A stretch of DNA of 39,253 nt from Escherichia virus ECG4. Position numbers and translations under genes: made by a program. Below, piece by piece: positions 1 through 36,341 of the stretch (the stretch's first letter is position 1; the number at the start of each line of letters is the position of its first letter). Under the pieces are notes generated by a model, which saw nothing but the letters and a program-made list of their open reading frames with translations, did not search any database and was not told the origin of the DNA. The stretch lies in the sequence record MN218775.2; one strand, written 5' to 3'.

Positions 1-218
1 TCTCACAGTTCAAGAACCTCAAGTCTCCCCATAGGCCCTCTTTCAGTCCAGACAAAAGGCCCTACCCCAGTCTATCATAAGGCTGGACCGATGGTCAAGA
101 CGTTAGGTCAACGATAGGTTTAGGCTATGGCTGAGGTCAGGACGATAGGTAGGGACTATGGGTCTGCCTCTGAGTCCCTAGGTGTATAAGACATTACGTG
201 ACTACGTACAATCTAACT

Positions 219-301
219 ACCTACAGTCATTGACTCCTGCCTGTTTACCTACAGTCACCGACCATCGGTAAAGCCATTACCTACAGTCAAAGACCTACAG
301 T
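219..301. repeat. Left-end short direct repeats, four copies of ACCTACAGT (219-229, 247-257, 279-289, 293-301)
   Basis: Motif seen four times within 85 bp; related GACCTACRGT copies occur at the right end (39173-39203). Position matches the T7 left-end CCTAAAG-type repeats. Confidence 0.5.
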
Positions 302-404
302 TAACCGACACAAAGCTATAGACTTAAGGTCTAATACATGTTAGTCAAAGACTATATCCTCTTACACTATGGGGCCGACGATAGCTTAATCAATATTATT
401 TAAG

Positions 405-445
405 ATTACCTATTGACTACAGGTCCAGACTATGGCTTAATAGCT
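405..445 (+). promoter_or_regulatory. Host sigma70-type early promoter (T7 A1-like position)
   Basis: TTGACT at 413-418 preceded by an AT-rich UP-like stretch (391-410); weak -10 candidate CTTAAT about 17 bp downstream. Positional analogy to T7 A1. Confidence 0.4.
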
Positions 446-547
446 TCCGTCAACACGACACGGCAACAACCGGATAGTGAAGACGCCGGGTCATCCCGGT
501 TAAGTAGACAACCTGATAAGTCATACGAACAACAGGCAGATGACAGA

Positions 548-590
548 AAGTAGTTGACAAGATGTACCGACTTAAAGTAGTATGTACCAC
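548..590 (+). promoter_or_regulatory. Host sigma70-type early promoter (T7 A2/A3-like)
   Basis: TTGACA at 554-559, 18-bp spacer, TAGTAT at 578-583; closely resembles the T7 A3 region (TTGACAACATGAAG...). Confidence 0.5.
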
Positions 591-703
591 ATCAACACGA
601 AACAACGGTGACGACCAACACTGAAACGGTCTACCCTGAAGTCGACTGATAAAGGGAATGCTCTTTAACAATCTGGATAAACTCTTAATGTGCGCCGATA
701 GCG

Positions 704-759
704 ACTAACTACAGGGTCTTTGAGTCTACATCTGAAGGCCCTGACTGATAGTCACTAAC
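704..759 (+). repeat. Conserved early intergenic element, copy 1 (candidate RNase III processing site / 5' leader)
   Basis: CTAACTACAGG ... CTGACTGATAGTCACTAAC immediately upstream of the RBS of the 776 gene; the same about 50-nt element recurs before the next two early genes. Confidence 0.4.
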
Positions 760-775
760 CGAACAGAAGGACAGT

Positions 776-1021
776 ATGAAGGCAAGCTACACAATCACTA
801 ATCACAATGAAGTATTCGTGAACACTAAAGGTTATGCGTGGATTCAGCTTAAAGAGACGACAGGAGCGCGTCACCGTGTGGTAGTGCGCAAGGTCTCAAG
901 CAAGCCGTTCAGCAACTACAGCGTAGATACTGTTCGTATAGACAACGAGACCTACCTGATAGACTCGCAGATAACCGTGAGTCCTACAGCGAGCGCCTCA
1001 GCTCCTTATTTCGCTAACTGA
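776..1021 (+). CDS. Early protein, 81 aa, unknown function
   Basis: ORF with AAGGA RBS; first gene after the host promoters; preceded by conserved leader element. No recognisable motif. Confidence 0.6.
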   Translation: MKASYTITNHNEVFVNTKGYAWIQLKETTGARHRVVVRKVSSKPFSNYSVDTVRIDNETYLIDSQITVSPTASASAPYFAN

Positions 1022-1024
1022 GAG

Positions 1025-1076
1025 TGATTAACTACCGGTCGTTCGACTCATACCGGCCCGACTGATAGTCACTAAC
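1025..1076 (+). repeat. Conserved early intergenic element, copy 2
   Basis: TGATTAACTACCGGTCGTTCGACT ... CCCGACTGATAGTCACTAAC directly after the stop of the 776 gene. Confidence 0.4.
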
Positions 1077-1094
1077 AACCTAAGAGGATTCATT

Positions 1095-1373
1095 ATGAGA
1101 CTGAACAAAGCTACAGCAGAAGCCTTTCGCAAGGAGCTTGAATCAAGATTATTGTGTGGAGTGGCGGAAGGAGCCGCTCGGTATAAAGAGAATGGTCTAA
1201 CGTTCAAGCGCTTTATGTGGGATTGCTATCACGGAGTGGGCCATAAAAAGGCGCAGGATATAATCACCAGTAACAATGCGGAAGTGCAAGTGGTGGGAGG
1301 ATATATGACTAACGTGAAGGATTCACACATAGAGACCATGCTCAAGAATGCACTTAAAGATGTAGCCTACTAG
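1095..1373 (+). CDS. Early protein, 92 aa, unknown function
   Basis: ORF with AGAGGA RBS, flanked by conserved leader elements. Confidence 0.6.
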   Translation: MRLNKATAEAFRKELESRLLCGVAEGAARYKENGLTFKRFMWDCYHGVGHKKAQDIITSNNAEVQVVGGYMTNVKDSHIETMLKNALKDVAY

Positions 1374-1374
1374 T

Positions 1375-1437
1375 GATTAACTACAGGTCGTTAGACTGCT
1401 ACAGGTCGTTAGACTGGGCCTGACTGATAGTCACTAA
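1375..1437 (+). repeat. Conserved early intergenic element, copy 3 (internal tandem duplication of CTACAGGTCGTTAGACTG)
   Basis: TGATTAACTACAGGTCGTTAGACTG CTACAGGTCGTTAGACTG GGCCTGACTGATAGTCACTAAC upstream of ocr. Confidence 0.4.
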
Positions 1438-1470
1438 CATACACATACACAACTTTGAGAGGATATAACT

Positions 1471-1806
1471 ATGGAACGTAACGCTAACGCATACTATGAG
1501 CTGCTGGCTGCAACCGTTGAGGCATTTATCGAGCGTATTCAGTACGACCACCTGACTCAAGATGACGACTACAGCGATGCGCTGCACGAGGTCGTAGGCG
1601 ATCAGGTCCCGCACTATTACCACGAGATTTTCACGGTGATGGCTGCTGATGGTATAGACCACGAGTTCGAAGACTCTGGGCTGATGCCTGAAACCAAGGA
1701 CGTAACGCGTATCCTCCAAGCTCGCATCTATGAGGCGCTTTATAACGATGTGTCTAATAGCTTGGATGTAGTCTGGTTTGAGGCTGAAGAGGACTGCGAG
1801 CGATGA
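1471..1806 (+). CDS. ocr: Ocr-like anti-restriction protein (T7 gene 0.3 homologue), 111 aa
   Basis: Translation contains [43 protein letters not shown], closely matching T7 Ocr ([43 protein letters not shown]); acidic; GAGAGGA RBS. Confidence 0.9.
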
Positions 1807-1973
1807 TAACTTACGGTTTATGCCAGCACCACGTCACCAACGCCCGACTTATGGTCAAGACCGGGCAGTTAAACCACGATGCGACTATGCGTCACCTGAA
1901 AGCGGTCTACGAGGGCCGCAAGCGTATACACGACAGCTTACACGATGAGGATAACCAACAATGCACCAGATAA
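1803..1973 (+). CDS. Small early protein, 56 aa (below the ORF-track cutoff)
   Basis: ATG overlaps the ocr stop (ATGA coupling); open to the TAA at 1971-1973. Confidence 0.4.
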
Positions 1974-2086
1974 CTTATAGCAGCGAACAAGCGTTCTACG
2001 ATGGGTGCTACGAGCTGATGAAGCGCGATACTTGCTACGTGGCTAATCGTGAAAGCTTGACCATAACGCTGACAGGTGGATACTGA
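1961..2086 (+). CDS. Small early protein, 41 aa
   Basis: ATG at 1961 overlapping the end of the previous small ORF; ends at TGA 2084-2086 directly before the GTG start of the next ORF. Confidence 0.35.
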   Translation: MHQITYSSEQAFYDGCYELMKRDTCYVANRESLTITLTGGY

Positions 2087-2449
2087 GTGATAGACGAGAG
2101 GTCATCGACTGATAGGTGGCCTCAAAGATTACCACTTACATTGATAGGAGTTAACTATGAAAATGCATTACAGGGTATGCTTATCTCCGGTCATCTTTCT
2201 GATAGCTTGGGGACTTCTGGACGCAATCAAGCGAGGGTCATTCTAATGAGCTGGGTACTTCTGGGTATATCGATCTTCGGCTATGGACTTATCGCATACG
2301 TGCTGGTGAGAGACATCAACAAGGCACGTAAAGTCTATAAATTCAACTATGTACGTATGGTCCGCTGGACTGTACGTCAACCTAACGGACGATTCCTGCG
2401 CAATTTAGCGAACGTCTGGGATATAGCAACTCTTGGGAGCAAACTGTAA
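2087..2449 (+). CDS. Early protein, 120 aa, with a predicted transmembrane segment
   Basis: GTG start with AGGTGG about 8 nt upstream; hydrophobic stretch VILMSWVLLGISIFGYGLIAYVLV. An internal ATG at 2246 is an alternative start. Confidence 0.5.
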   Translation: MIDERSSTDRWPQRLPLTLIGVNYENALQGMLISGHLSDSLGTSGRNQARVILMSWVLLGISIFGYGLIAYVLVRDINKARKVYKFNYVRMVRWTVRQPNGRFLRNLANVWDIATLGSKL

Positions 2450-2775
2450 TGAACAAGTCATACGGGATTAATCTGGTACACTCTATGGACGCAGAAATGA
2501 ACATGTTAAGCCTACTGGCTACCGGGTATCATCACGGAACGTCAAGTCACACCGCACGTCAACAGCAGGAGCGGGACCGTGTACTACAGGCGCGACTCCG
2601 GGCAGAGGGCCATAAGTCCGAACTGATGTGTCTGGCGTATGGTGGACGACCAATCACCGACGATGGTAAACTTCTGGTATCAGGCTGGACGGCGATAGAC
2701 CAACGGTCAACCATCAAGCACACGACACAAGGTGACTTCAGTCATCTTCACGCTAACCCACTGATATGCAAGTAA
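2449..2775 (+). CDS. Early protein, 108 aa, unknown function (occupies the position where T7 has the gp0.7 kinase)
   Basis: ATG overlaps the previous stop; no kinase motifs seen. Confidence 0.5.
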   Translation: MNKSYGINLVHSMDAEMNMLSLLATGYHHGTSSHTARQQQERDRVLQARLRAEGHKSELMCLAYGGRPITDDGKLLVSGWTAIDQRSTIKHTTQGDFSHLHANPLICK

Positions 2776-2780
2776 TTATG

Positions 2781-2803
2781 ACTTAACTATCACTATAGGA
2801 CTC
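2781..2803 (+). promoter_or_regulatory. Phage RNAP promoter located upstream of the RNAP gene itself
   Basis: TTAACTATCACTATAGGA at 2783-2800, +1 G at 2798; matches the in-genome consensus. Confidence 0.7.
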
Positions 2804-2872
2804 AAGGTCTAAGACTCCAAGTGAAAGACCAAAGAGACTCTAAGTGAAAGACTAATAACAAGGACTTTAAGT

Positions 2873-5554
2873 ATGAGCGTCATCTCTATTGACAAACATG
2901 ACTTCTCTGATGTGTCGAACGCCATTGAGCCGTTTAACCTGCTGGCTGACCACTACGGACAAGACCTTGCAGTCAAACAGCTTCAGCTTGAGCATGAGGC
3001 ATATACAGAAGGCGAGCGACGTTTCATCAAGAACCTTGAGCGGCAGACTGAGCGCGGGGAACTGGCAGACAATCAGGTCGCCAAGCCTTTGATGCAGACT
3101 CTGGTCCCTAAGATTGCGCAAGCCGTCAGGGAGTGGCACGAAGGCCTAGACGGGAAGCTGTCAACCTCGCGTCCTAGCGTAGCGTTCACCATGTTGAGCA
3201 CTGAAGAGAAGGCCGTTAAGGACCGCTCTATGCGCATCTCCTGTGAGTCCGCTGCGGTTATCATACTGAAGGTCATACTCTCCAAGCTGGTCAAGCCTGA
3301 AGGGATACCGATTACACCGATGGCCTCCGCGATAGGTCGCACGCTTGAGGACGAAATCCGCTTCGGTCGCATCCGTGACAAAGAGAAGGAGCACTTCAAG
3401 AAGGCGATAGCTGATAACCTGAACAAGCGAGCTGGGGCATCCTACAAGAAAGCCTACATGCAAGCGGTCGAGGCGTCCATGCTGGAGCAAGGCCAACTGG
3501 AAGATGCATGGGGTACTTGGAGTCCTACAGAGGCTGTACACGTTGGCATCAAGATGCTCGAGATTGTCATCCAGTCAACACAACTGGTCGAGCTTAAGCG
3601 GTACGGTGCTGGTAATGCAGCGGCTGACGTAGAGATGGTCCACCTGTCAGACTTCTGGGTCAAGAAGATGGCACAACGAGGATTCAGCCTTGCGGGTATC
3701 GCTCCAGTCTACCAGCCTTGCGTCGTTCCACCTAAGCCGTGGACTGGTGTCGTAGGTGGTGGGTACTGGGCCAAAGGTCGCAGACCGTTACCATTGATTC
3801 GCTTAGGGTCTAAGTCTGCGGTAGCACGTTATGAAGACGTATACATGCCTGAAGTCTATGACGCTGTGAACATCATTCAGAATACACCTTGGAAAGTTAA
3901 CAAGAAGGTATTGGACGTGGTGAACATGGTCGAGAAGCTGAACAACACGCCTATTAATGACATCCCTCAGATGGAACCGCTGAAGCCTGAGGACTATGCT
4001 GGTGAAACCGAGGAGGAACTCAAGGCATGGAAGAAGGCTGCTGCTGGTATCTATCGCCGCGAGAAGGCCAGACAGTCACGCAGATTGTCCATGAGTTTCA
4101 TCGTTCACCAGGCCAACAAGTTCTCACAGTTTAAGGCCATCTGGTTCCCGTACAACATGGATTGGCGAGGTCGTGTCTACGCTGTCCCGATGTTCAACCC
4201 TCAGGGTAACGACATGCAGAAGGGGCTCCTGACTCTGGCAGTCGGCAAGCCTATCGGGGCGGATGGTTTCAAATGGCTTAAAGTCCACGGTGCAAACTGT
4301 GCGGGTGTCGATAAAGTCACCTTCGATGAGCGCATCAAGTGGGTGGAAGACAACCACGAAAACATCATGGCTGCTGCTAAGGCACCGATGGATAGTATTG
4401 AGTGGTGGGGCAAGTTAGACTCTCCGTTCTGTTTCCTCGCGTTCTGCTTCGAGTATGCTGGCGTAATGCACCACGGCCTGTCTTACTCCTGCTCGCTGCC
4501 GATAGCGTTCGATGGGTCCTGCTCTGGTATTCAGCACTTCAGTGCGATGCTTCGTGACCACATCGGTGGACATGCAGTAAACCTGACGCCATCCGGCATG
4601 GTACAAGACATCTACCGCATTGTGTCTGACCGCATTGAGGAGGAGCTTAAAGTCCTTCTGATTAACGGTACTGACAACGAGATGGTCACTCACGAGGATA
4701 AGAAAACTGGTGAGATTACCGAACGTATCAAGCTGGGGACACGAGAGCTGGCCCGTCGGTGGCTGACATACGGTATGTCACGCAAGGTCACTAAGCGTTC
4801 AGTCATGACTCTGGCATACGGGTCGAAAGAGTACGGATTCGCAGACCAAGTTTACGAGGACATCGTGATGCCAGCGATTGACTCAGGGTCTGGCGCTATG
4901 TTCACTGAACCAAGCCAAGCGTCTCGCTTCATGGCAAAGATGATTTGGGAAGCTGTGAGTGTGACAGTAGTTGCTGCGGTTGACGCGATGAAGTGGCTTC
5001 AAGGTGCTGCCAAGCTGCTGGCTGCTGAGGTGAAGGACAAGAAGACTGGGGAAATCCTGAAGCCTTGCCTTCCGGTACACTGGGTCACACCTGATGGGTT
5101 CCCGGTCTGGCAGGAATACCGCAAGAAGGATACCACTCGTCTGAACCTGATGTTCTTAGGGTCCTTCAACCTTCAACCTACGGTCAACAAAGGTACGAAG
5201 AAAGAGCTGGACAAGCACAAGCAGGAGTCAGGCATTAGCCTTAACTTCGTCCACTCACAAGATGGTAGCCACCTGCGGAAGACTGTAGTCCACACTCACA
5301 GCAAGTATGGCGTGATGTCATTCGCAGTGATTCACGATAGCTTCGGGACCATCCCTGCTGACGCTGAGTATCTGTTCCGTGGTGTCCGTGAGACGATGGT
5401 CGAGACATACCGCGATAACGATGTGCTGCTTGACTTCTACGAGCAGTTTGAATACCAGCTTCATGAAAGCCAGCGCGACAAGTTGCCTGAGCTTCCGAAG
5501 AAAGGTAAACTGAATATCGAAGACATCTTGTCTTCAGACTTTGCATTCGCTTAA
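2873..5554 (+). CDS. Single-subunit DNA-directed RNA polymerase (T7 gene 1 homologue), 893 aa
   Basis: Length and colinear similarity to T7 RNAP, including the C-terminal HSQDGSHLRKTVV ... DSFGTIPADA ... SDFAFA. Confidence 0.97.
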   Translation: MSVISIDKHDFSDVSNAIEPFNLLADHYGQDLAVKQLQLEHEAYTEGERRFIKNLERQTERGELADNQVAKPLMQTLVPKIAQAVREWHEGLDGKLSTSRPSVAFTMLSTEEKAVKDRSMRISCESAAVIILKVILSKLVKPEGIPITPMASAIGRTLEDEIRFGRIRDKEKEHFKKAIADNLNKRAGASYKKAYMQAVEASMLEQGQLEDAWGTWSPTEAVHVGIKMLEIVIQSTQLVELKRYGAGNAAADVEMVHLSDFWVKKMAQRGFSLAGIAPVYQPCVVPPKPWTGVVGGGYWAKGRRPLPLIRLGSKSAVARYEDVYMPEVYDAVNIIQNTPWKVNKKVLDVVNMVEKLNNTPINDIPQMEPLKPEDYAGETEEELKAWKKAAAGIYRREKARQSRRLSMSFIVHQANKFSQFKAIWFPYNMDWRGRVYAVPMFNPQGNDMQKGLLTLAVGKPIGADGFKWLKVHGANCAGVDKVTFDERIKWVEDNHENIMAAAKAPMDSIEWWGKLDSPFCFLAFCFEYAGVMHHGLSYSCSLPIAFDGSCSGIQHFSAMLRDHIGGHAVNLTPSGMVQDIYRIVSDRIEEELKVLLINGTDNEMVTHEDKKTGEITERIKLGTRELARRWLTYGMSRKVTKRSVMTLAYGSKEYGFADQVYEDIVMPAIDSGSGAMFTEPSQASRFMAKMIWEAVSVTVVAAVDAMKWLQGAAKLLAAEVKDKKTGEILKPCLPVHWVTPDGFPVWQEYRKKDTTRLNLMFLGSFNLQPTVNKGTKKELDKHKQESGISLNFVHSQDGSHLRKTVVHTHSKYGVMSFAVIHDSFGTIPADAEYLFRGVRETMVETYRDNDVLLDFYEQFEYQLHESQRDKLPELPKKGKLNIEDILSSDFAFA

Positions 5555-6023: not shown

Positions 6024-6416
6024 ATGGTCGGCCTGAAGTTCAAGGCTCTGTTCAATAGCCTCTACCAGCCGACTGAGTTCAAGACCGGGCCTGGAGCATG
6101 CGGTAAGATTGTGACGCACTTCACCACGAGTCGAGACGAGCGGACCCTGACCATCCACCAGCACCACACGGATGGCTCTCAGAAGGACTACATGCTGAGA
6201 CTGAGCGACATCGACGGTCGCATCCAGTATGACTACGAGCAAGTTAAAGTCTATGGACAGGAGGCCGAACGTGAGCGAGCGATTCAGGCATTCACGCAGG
6301 TAAGACCGCGCATCATCTTACCCCTTTGCCTCCCATTGCCGTTAACCGTTAAAATTCCGTGTCGACGTACGTACGTACGTACGTACGTACGTACGTTGCA
6401 TGCATGCATGCACTAA
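6024..6416 (+). CDS. Hypothetical 130-aa ORF that runs into the tetranucleotide repeat tract
   Basis: ATG with GAGG 8 nt upstream. The last about 15 codons are translated from the (ACGT)n/(TGCA)n tract and the stop is the TAA of the downstream promoter, so the 3' end is not credible as native coding. Confidence 0.25.
   Translation: MVGLKFKALFNSLYQPTEFKTGPGACGKIVTHFTTSRDERTLTIHQHHTDGSQKDYMLRLSDIDGRIQYDYEQVKVYGQEAERERAIQAFTQVRPRIILPLCLPLPLTVKIPCRRTYVRTYVRTLHACMH
6357..6412. repeat. Perfect tetranucleotide tandem tract: SalI-like GTCGAC, then (ACGT)x8 (6365-6396), then (TGCA)x4 (6397-6412)
   Basis: Read directly from the sequence. Contains ATG in all three frames (6400, 6404, 6408) and three GCATGC sites; abuts the phi1.1-like promoter. 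Confidence 0.95.
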
Positions 6417-6434
6417 ACTATCACTATAGGATTA
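6412..6434 (+). promoter_or_regulatory. Phage RNAP promoter (phi1.1-like)
   Basis: TAAACTATCACTATAGGA at 6414-6431, +1 G at 6429. Confidence 0.75.
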
Positions 6435-6476
6435 GACTCAAGGTCATGACTCAAAGTCGTGGCCTTCATGATTAAC
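6433..6476 (+). promoter_or_regulatory. Conserved hairpin element TAGACTCAAGGTCAT ... GTGGCCTTCATGATTAAC (candidate RNase III site, R1.1-like)
   Basis: One of three near-identical elements (also 13237-13278 and 36245-36287); AAGGTC can pair with GGCCTT. Confidence 0.45.
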
Positions 6477-6514
6477 CTTTATTACTCATTTTCAATTATT
6501 GGAGCTTTACCCCT

Positions 6515-13105: not shown

Positions 13106-13234
13106 ATGTACAAATGGTGGAGTGATGAAGCAACCTGCCTGTCCAACATTCTGGGAGACCAAAGGTTCGACTCTAAGGCATGGAAGAGAGCTAACCGGAA
13201 GTTTATGTATCACTTCTTGCGTACAGACTTCTAG
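13106..13234 (+). CDS. Possible small protein, 42 aa
   Basis: ATG immediately after the gene 4 stop (TAAATG); no clear RBS. Confidence 0.3.
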   Translation: MYKWWSDEATCLSNILGDQRFDSKAWKRANRKFMYHFLRTDF

Positions 13235-13236
13235 GT

Positions 13237-13278
13237 CTAGACTCAAGGTCATTCACATCGAGTGGCCTTTATGATTAG
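13237..13278 (+). promoter_or_regulatory. Conserved hairpin element (candidate RNase III site, R4.7-like) upstream of the DNA polymerase gene
   Basis: TAGACTCAAGGTCATTCACATCGAGTGGCCTTTATGATTAGAC; second copy of the element. Confidence 0.45.
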
Positions 13279-13298
13279 ACTAAATCGGAGGATTAACC

Positions 13299-35980: not shown

Positions 35981-36240
35981 CGCAGATGGACTTAGAGAAG
36001 TTCCTCTTGATGCTTGATACTGAGCGTGCTCGACTTATGCTGCAAGACTTGCGGGATGACACTAAGCGTTCACCTCAGCTCTACAACGCCATTGAGAAGC
36101 TGCTTGCTCGTCACAACTTTGTGTTAAGCAAGGTGTCTGTTGACGAGAAGACGCTCGCTGATATGGAGGCCCTGAACGCAGAGTACGATAAGGTGCTCTC
36201 CGCTACGGAAGATAATGACACCGGGTATGGTGTTCAATAA
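35977..36240 (+). CDS. Terminase small subunit (T7 gene 18 homologue), 87 aa
   Basis: Position and length (T7 gp18 is 89 aa); ATG overlaps the holin stop. Confidence 0.8.
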   Translation: MTQMDLEKFLLMLDTERARLMLQDLRDDTKRSPQLYNAIEKLLARHNFVLSKVSVDEKTLADMEALNAEYDKVLSATEDNDTGYGVQ

Positions 36241-36244
36241 GCGT

Positions 36245-36287
36245 TAGACTCAAGGTCATTACTGTATGTAGTGGCCTTTATGGTTAA
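36245..36287 (+). promoter_or_regulatory. Conserved hairpin element (candidate RNase III site, R18.5-like)
   Basis: TTAGACTCAAGGTCATTACTGTATGTAGTGGCCTTTATGGTTAAC; third copy of the element. Confidence 0.45.
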
Positions 36288-36341
36288 CACTAACTAGTGG
36301 AGGAGACTCTACGTGCAATCTGATAAACCGGGAGGGCAACT

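Follow-up and report, generated by a model that had tools for sequence, protein, structure and literature searches.

The closest described counterpart of the locus considered here is the early region of bacteriophage T7, in which the host RNA polymerase makes a polycistronic precursor of ~7,000 nucleotides (nt) that ribonuclease III (RNase III) cuts co-transcriptionally at five sites to give mono- and dicistronic messenger RNAs (mRNAs), the R1.1 RNA being cleaved at a single bond (PMC4858673). The T7 gene 0.7 protein kinase phosphorylates and stimulates RNase III (PMC4858673), and phage accessory regions more generally hold counter-defence genes (Silas et al., bioRxiv 10.1101/2023.04.06.535777). 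Escherichia virus ECG4 (sequence record MN218775.2, whose whole stretch of 39,253 nt is called the window below) is a K1F-like T7-family phage (Kayfunavirus, Studiervirinae). At the far left of its early region, as judged from the annotations of LS3, Peacock and K1F, and between host-type promoters and gene 1 (the RNA polymerase gene, 2873–5554), three copies of a repeated element separate two small genes, here called A and B, and ocr (gene 0.3). Comparison of their sequences strongly supports these repeats as T7-group intercistronic RNase III processing hairpins, homologous to R0.3 and R0.5, two mapped RNase III sites of T7. The explanation that we favour overall, with a probability of about 0.78, is that RNase III hairpins bracket exchangeable early accessory cassettes. 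Positions 600–1500 of the window are 98.2% identical to Escherichia virus LS3 over their full length and match 222 phage records in total, chiefly K1F-like coliphages and Salmonella phages.

The preliminary description of this DNA reported three elements of 50–60 nt, each placed between a stop codon and the next ribosome-binding site (RBS), and proposed them as candidate RNase III sites. The three copies are confirmed, at a length of 58–71 nt, and further copies occur elsewhere in the window (Table 1). A 19-mer of the 3′ arm, CTGACTGATAGTCACTAAC, is present with at most one mismatch at three sites (741, 1058 and 1420), all on the plus strand, whereas shuffled sequences are expected to give 0.01; the 5′ arm is likewise repeated, and a repeat search recovers both arms. 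The placement of the elements differs from that first account. Copy 1 is preceded by host-type promoters and a BoxA motif, not by the stop codon of a credible gene, and the stop codons of A (TGA, 1019–1021) and B (TAG, 1371–1373) are not ahead of the following hairpin but at the edge of its 5′ arm or within it.

The relationship to the T7 sites is seen at the level of sequence, position and fold. The minimum-free-energy folds of copies 1–4 show the same bracket pattern as T7 R0.3 and R0.5, and the R1 region folds similarly. The consensus architecture comprises a lower stem of ~8 base pairs (bp), an asymmetric internal loop and an upper stem of ~9 bp, amounting to about two helical turns. Alignment of the copies with R0.3 and R0.5 displays 15 invariant columns, and T7 R0.5 (GAGTGATAGACTCAAGGTCG...GGCCTTTATGATTATCAC) aligns directly with window copy 2 (GAGTGATTAACTACCGGTCG...GGCCCGACTGATAGTCAC). 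The flank upstream of copy 1 (CTCTTTAACAATCTGG) is common to T7, which identifies this copy as the positional homologue of R0.3. RNAalifold proposes 18 pairs over nine sequences, 9 of them with compensatory changes. A covariance model built from this RNAalifold-based alignment and run without filters on the window returns seven sites, all on the plus strand and all with E ≤ 6e-5; ten mapped RNase III sites are similarly spread along the T7 genome. Applied to 48 related loci, the model finds 66 sites, every one on the ocr (transcribed, plus) strand, with the early-region matches in intergenic positions, and it recovers T7 R1.1, which is absent from the seed. In the alignment of these 66 sites, 96.4% of cells are paired and 13 of the 18 pairs show change on both sides. 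The covariation score is 0.533, compared with 0.04–0.08 when the partners are slid by 1–3 columns, and is reached by none of 500 shuffles. Shared sequence, position and structure together with covarying pairing thus support the assignment as RNase III sites that had been put forward for these elements. A permissive Rfam search over 8 kb shows no family for the hairpins, just chance microRNA-like matches on a tetranucleotide repeat, and Rfam seems to have no model for these RNase III sites.

Copy 3 is exceptional in that CTACAGGTCGTTAGACTG occurs twice in tandem (1381–1398 and 1399–1416) within the upper stem, a duplication limited to the window and LS3 among the aligned junctions. Its fold nonetheless shows the lower stem, internal loop and upper stem. 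Scores of this hairpin against the covariance model are 68.8 bits in Peacock, 52.5 bits in the window and 40.1 bits in LS3. The duplication may be a scar of slippage or of misaligned recombination, and may cause weaker processing ahead of ocr.

Transfer of the T7 cut positions through the alignment with R0.3 and R0.5 allows the early transcripts of the window to be outlined. RNase III is reported to cut T7 RNA after nt 890, 1468 and 5887 (Dunn and Studier 1983); in the T7 sequence each of these coordinates corresponds to the U|G step of a UAU|GAU, which supports them. The corresponding predicted cuts in hairpins 1–4 are, in order, 746|747, 1063|1064, 1425|1426 and 2126|2127. By analogy with T7, the host RNA polymerase would start at the left-end promoters and read through BoxA, and the growing polycistronic transcript would be cleaved by host RNase III at every internal loop, on its 3′ side. 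The predicted messages would measure 317 nt (A), 362 nt (B) and 701 nt (ocr with two small open reading frames, ORFs), each beginning ~30–45 nt before its start codon and ending in the protective upper stem-loop of the next hairpin. The gene 0.7 protein kinase is absent between ocr and the RNA polymerase gene (1806–2873), an interval that holds just small ORFs of 41–108 amino acids (aa) from PHROG families without known function. The phage would therefore depend on unstimulated host RNase III.

Mapping of hairpins and ORF families in all loci reveals that the space from the first hairpin (R) to ocr, referred to here as the slot, has a highly variable content (Table 1). Kayfunavirus on its own displays five slot arrangements (none, A, B, A-B and B-A). 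Hafnia phage yong1 has B without A just ahead of ocr. In Apdecimavirus AP10 and Teetrevirus phiCFP-1, B follows ocr and gene 0.4 and has a hairpin on either side, as does A in a Klebsiella Przondovirus. In the junction alignment, homology begins at the end of the upstream ORF and ceases ~7 nt after CACTAAC, and the leader and RBS travel with the downstream gene. The hairpin, a unit of ~57 nt with exact stretches of 13–19 nt, is the sole sequence common to all junction types, and may therefore act as a portable block of homology, recombination within which would insert, delete and permute cassettes. Since flanking direct repeats should readily delete a cassette, the persistence of cassettes implies selection. 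No description of RNase III sites as cassette borders was found in the literature searched, in which older T7 work is thinly covered; what the present comparison adds, with no claim to priority, is an explicit view of how single-gene cassettes bounded by hairpins are combined, SAM (S-adenosylmethionine) lyase being one of the occupants.

The preliminary description also noted two proteins of 81 and 92 aa before the Ocr homologue, where T7 was said to have nothing. Both ORFs are present, followed by Ocr as identified by Pfam, and in T7 the R0.3 hairpin indeed leads directly into gene 0.3. The label 'unknown' given to the two proteins is apt insofar as no characterised relative is detected for either, but A is already known as K1F gp0.2 and both are in databases, where the LS3 and Peacock records list them as hypothetical proteins. 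Both are real protein-coding genes under purifying selection: they have conserved motifs and RBSs, and the ratio of non-synonymous to synonymous substitution rates (dN/dS) is 0.07–0.34 where dS is measurable. Searches of Pfam, NCBIfam and PADLOC, of the PDB by sequence profile and by fold, and of BFVD give neither protein a significant match outside its own family. The only weak Pfam matches, to YNR034W-A-like and PspC (E = 0.06 and 0.25), do not reach the curated cut-off and were dismissed. Homology to structural or housekeeping proteins, which the preliminary description had set against its anti-defence proposal, was looked for in both proteins and none was confident; comparison of sequences and folds did not link either of them to a characterised anti-defence protein. 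K1F gp0.2, the PHROG identifiers and the A and B peptides are not mentioned in the literature searched, and the two peptides were not found in the supplementary files examined for the Silas et al. screen and its follow-up.

Gene A is orthologous to K1F gp0.2 (CAJ29341), with 90% identity and the same position. It occurs in 118 phage records, with carriers that include Kayfunavirus, Przondovirus, the phiKT-like PGT2, the early region of the N4-like Gamaleyavirus and Phapecoctavirus (151 kb), and that span Autographiviridae, Schitoviridae and Stephanstirmvirinae; the window and Phapecoctavirus proteins share 72% identity. In the non-T7 phages that carry A, the covariance model detects no hairpins. 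The protein is mildly basic (isoelectric point, pI, of 9.4), and its predicted structure is an all-β model of poor quality (predicted local distance difference test, pLDDT, of 57). Its dN/dS is 0.07–0.34 against more diverged relatives and near 1 against the closest ones. In the window and LS3, substitutions cluster in a stretch of ~30 nt (760–790) that covers the leader of A, its RBS and codons 3–5, so that the N terminus reads ASY in the window in place of the HLS that is near-invariant in relatives. This stretch looks like a short replacement patch, and it accounts for the dN/dS near 1 against close relatives.

Gene B is found in 61 records, from Kayfunavirus, Apdecimavirus, Teetrevirus, Przondovirus, PGT2 and Yersinia and Serratia phages, and is missing from K1F itself. 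A profile search of 1.84 billion representatives yields just 19 matches (representative clusters), 15 of which are small orphan proteins. The other four are long proteins (481–2129 aa) that match in 5–7 short stretches only, and are probably spurious. The contexts of two distant relatives are uninformative phage contigs. B is mildly basic (pI 8.95), with a dN/dS of 0.11–0.34 and conserved motifs Y-K-x-x-G-L-T-F-x-R-F-x-W-D and D-S-H-I-E-T-M-L, and its confident predicted model (pLDDT 85) consists of five helices and a β-hairpin. One metagenomic relative, P0098 (104 aa), has 66 N-terminal residues of the B family and a C-terminal tail (…CYSIIDGQYWEVV) that resembles the C terminus of the SAM lyase of locus L043; judged by these similarities, it is apparently a deletion or recombination chimera of neighbouring B and SAM lyase genes. 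A B relative that matches S-AdoMet lyase weakly appears from the alignment to be P0098, and this match is read as a sign of the chimera and not as evidence that B is a lyase.

What A and B do is suggested by their genomic context, from which an anti-defence role can be argued at somewhat less than even odds. By position they are the first genes transcribed in the window. They adjoin Ocr or SAM lyase in Kayfunavirus, Apdecimavirus, Teetrevirus, Przondovirus and Ermolevavirus, in neighbour orders that include A-B-Ocr (window), Ocr-0.4-B (AP10 and phiCFP-1), B-SAM lyase (Klebsiella phage Mera) and B-SAM lyase-A (PGT2). As expected of accessory genes, they vary between conserved flanks, show horizontal transfer and are co-located with counter-defence genes. 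The most speculative step of the favoured explanation is that A and B, being expressed first and travelling with Ocr or SAM lyase, would most likely counteract a host barrier that the phage meets as infection begins. A bolder version, which we regard as doubtful, is that A and B represent two new very early anti-defence families and that the hairpins double as portable recombination joints, giving rise to combinatorial arrays of one-gene counter-defence units. Under that proposal A and B might, for instance, counter a nuclease or sensor directed at incoming DNA, or a system by which Ocr is sensed, and each cassette (Ocr, SAM lyase, A, B, the 58-aa ORF or the 43-aa ORF) would automatically obtain its own stable, translatable message.

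An equally unlikely competitor is that A and B are host-takeover proteins, small early inhibitors of a housekeeping process of the host (for example transcription, division or nucleotide metabolism) comparable to T7 gp0.4, gp0.7, gp1.2 or gp2. They match such genes in early class I location and small size, they are mildly basic whereas Ocr is acidic, and with no gene 0.7 kinase in this phage other early proteins may assume host shut-off. However, their patchy presence within one genus is more in keeping with barriers that differ among strains than with a target common to all hosts, they repeatedly adjoin Ocr or SAM lyase, and T7 is not among the matches listed when A and B are compared by tblastn with 50,697 phage records. 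Less probable still is that they are selfish or phage-versus-phage genes, engaged for example in superinfection exclusion or competition and spread by easy cassette recombination. The permuted cassette order and the wide distribution of A, which extends to Phapecoctavirus and to N4-like and phiKT-like phages, would agree with such genes; yet direct repeats should quickly delete a useless cassette, while A and B persist under purifying selection, and the lack of model-detected hairpins in the non-T7 hosts of A indicates that its spread is not hairpin-dependent.

The nature of the repeats leaves little room for a reading at the DNA level, as recombination sites or protein-binding repeats, or for terminators or attenuators in place of RNase III substrates, and we consider this very improbable. 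The repeats do mark cassette breakpoints and match no Rfam family, and a recombination role can coexist with an RNA role; however, orientation follows transcription at 7 of 7 window sites and 66 of 66 sites in related loci, and compensatory changes, G-U included, preserve pairing in the RNA. Terminators were rejected because a scan of positions 1–3000 contains no terminator-like site and no U-tract follows the hairpins. Sequence and architecture are those of T7 R0.3 and R0.5, and the model recovers R1.1, which is cleaved by RNase III (PMC4858673). Least credible of all is that the A and B ORFs are non-functional and the leader merely long. The low-confidence structural model of A, the atypical ASY N terminus and the dN/dS near 1 against closest relatives point that way, but both ORFs are intact in dozens of phages of several genera, and their motifs, RBSs and low dN/dS at larger distances argue for function.

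Several points weigh against the favoured explanation of early cassettes bounded by RNase III hairpins. Cleavage by RNase III at these hairpins is inferred by homology with T7, and recombination at them is deduced from breakpoints in aligned sequences. The 66 sequences were aligned by fitting to the model and are related to one another, so that their pair counts lean toward the structure. Folding z-scores of single copies are modest (−1.8 to −2.5), and either the C-C mismatch of hairpin 2 or the 18 extra nt that lengthen the upper stem in hairpin 3 could weaken cutting. In addition, the early region of T7-like phages is short, which makes nearness to gene 0.3 weak evidence of shared function, and the A homologues of N4-like phages and Phapecoctavirus adjoin unrelated hypothetical genes.

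Table 1. Features of the ECG4 window and slot contents of related loci (R, RNase III-type hairpin; scores of hairpins are against the covariance model)
Feature	Position or loci	Strand	Details
Candidate sigma-70-like early promoter, best match	554..583	+	TTGACA, 18 nt, TAGTAT; consensus scan, 10/12; consensus match only
rrn-type BoxA motif GCTCTTTAACAA in early leader	660..671	+	Sole exact match in window
RNase III-type hairpin 1, positional homologue of T7 R0.3	697..760	+	62.3 bits, seed sequence
Gene A, 81 aa, K1F gp0.2 family (phrog_10124), function unknown	776..1021	+	Shine-Dalgarno present
RNase III-type hairpin 2, one C-C mismatch in consensus register	1020..1077	+	62.5 bits
Gene B, 92 aa (phrog_9817), function unknown	1095..1373	+	Shine-Dalgarno present
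RNase III-type hairpin 3, 18-nt tandem duplication	1369..1439	+	52.5 bits, outside seed
ocr (gene 0.3), DNA-mimic anti-restriction protein, 111 aa	1471..1806	+	Pfam PF08684
RNase III-type hairpin 4, closes ocr-containing message	2083..2140	+	61.9 bits, seed sequence
RNase III-type hairpin, overlaps 3′ end of promoter-like 6412–6431	6426..6481	+	27.8 bits, E = 6e-5, outside seed
RNase III-type hairpin	13230..13285	+	41.8 bits, outside seed
RNase III-type hairpin	36237..36295	+	47.9 bits, outside seed
R-ocr (empty slot)	T7, L006, L009–L012, L016, L017, among others		
R-A-R-ocr	K1F, L013		
R-A-R-B-R-ocr	Window, LS3, Peacock		
R-B-R-A-R-ocr	L008		
R-B-R-ocr	L041		
R-(58–59-aa ORF)-R-ocr	L007, L014, L021, L022, L034		ORF at L007 2748–2924, L021 604–783
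R-(43-aa ORF)-R-ocr	L018, L031		ORF at L018 292–423, L031 2799–2930
R-SAM lyase-R, two small ORFs, ocr	L043		Pfam S-AdoMet_lyase E = 1e-44
SAM lyase genes labelled as methyltransferase	L043 870–1325; L054 (PGT2) 2374–3427; L058 (Mera) 813–1574		

The remaining slot occupants deserve a brief description. The 58–59-aa and 43-aa cassettes, of unknown function, correspond to phrog_20418 and to an ORF without PHROG or Pfam match, respectively. Locus L043 carries a 173-aa Ocr in addition to its SAM lyase. The SAM lyases listed in Table 1 are labelled 'SAM-dependent methyltransferase' in public records and PHROGs, yet match Pfam S-AdoMet_lyase.

The leader that precedes these cassettes has further conserved signals. 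T7 has its A-promoter cluster at the position equivalent to the best promoter-like site of the window. The 12-mer at 660–671 is a perfect match to the BoxA consensus GYTCTTTAANA (PMC5725501) and ends 26 nt upstream of the first hairpin; its conservation and its location in the leader make it a candidate Nus-factor site. The exact 12-mer is present on the plus strand in 46 of 60 loci, including T7 (813–824), and 2–3 copies of BoxA lie ahead of ocr in some distant ocr-carrying phages (L020, L037 and L050).

The assignment of Ocr itself is secure (Pfam PF08684, E = 8e-31, 106.9 bits for a cut-off of 25; phrog_2568, E = 3e-51), and the protein is strongly acidic, with a pI of 4.1 and a charge of −21. 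Further along the window, a 20-nt repeat, ACT(T/A)AACTATCACTATAGGA, occurs at 2781–2800, shortly upstream of gene 1, and at 6412–6431, and resembles a phage RNA polymerase promoter. A low-complexity palindromic tract (6359–6410), made of GTCGAC, (ACGT)8 and about four TGCA units, adjoins the second of these copies and the hairpin that overlaps it, and lies upstream of both. With a 251-nt query containing the tract, LS2 and LS3 match throughout, and Peacock and other Kayfunaviruses match in part (≤57%).

As RNA elements the hairpins are nothing new in kind, and indicate that K1F-like phages have kept the T7 mode of processing early mRNA. Because the slot takes up exchangeable one-gene cassettes, one of which encodes a known anti-restriction enzyme, A, B and the 58-aa and 43-aa ORFs are cheap and well-motivated targets for an anti-defence screen. 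K1F-type phages are used against E. coli K1, and the hairpin-bounded unit could be a natural insertion module for the engineering of T7-like therapeutic phages.

Tandem promoter-like sites followed by a perfect BoxA and an RNase III-type hairpin recall the leader of the E. coli rrn operons, although no rRNA is involved here and the hairpin is local whereas the rrn stem is long-range. Like the accessory regions of Silas et al., the slot is a hotspot where small genes that vary in presence and are exchanged horizontally lie between conserved flanks and alongside ocr; it differs from those regions in that the cassette borders are RNA-processing hairpins. A and B belong to families without known function, K1F gp0.2 and phrog_10124 for A and phrog_9817 for B. 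Unlike the acidic Ocr, they are basic, and neither of them resembles Ocr or SAM lyase in sequence or fold. They nevertheless share with the gene 0.3 cassettes of T7-like phages (Ocr and the T3-type SAM lyase) the property of being transcribed first, with one gene per RNase III-bounded message, and of being interchangeable among relatives: SAM lyase is hairpin-flanked upstream of ocr in L043, and in PGT2 it is flanked by B and A.

The strongest resemblance is with the T7 processing sites R0.3, R0.5 and R1.1 (Dunn and Studier 1983; Nicholson laboratory). The two differ as follows: on the 3′ side of the internal loop the window has GACU|GA where T7 has UUAU|GA, three tightly spaced copies precede ocr where T7 has one, copy 3 contains the 18-nt upper-stem duplication, and the window lacks the gene 0.7 kinase. 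In both phages the sites follow the early promoters or lie between early cistrons, on the same strand and with the same stem-loop-stem architecture, and they share the sequence blocks AGUGAU.A.CU.AAGGUC ... GGCCU...GAU..UCACU. Even the manner in which genes abut the hairpins is conserved, since the stop codon of T7 gene 0.4 adjoins or enters the 5′ arm of R0.5 just as those of A and B do in the window.

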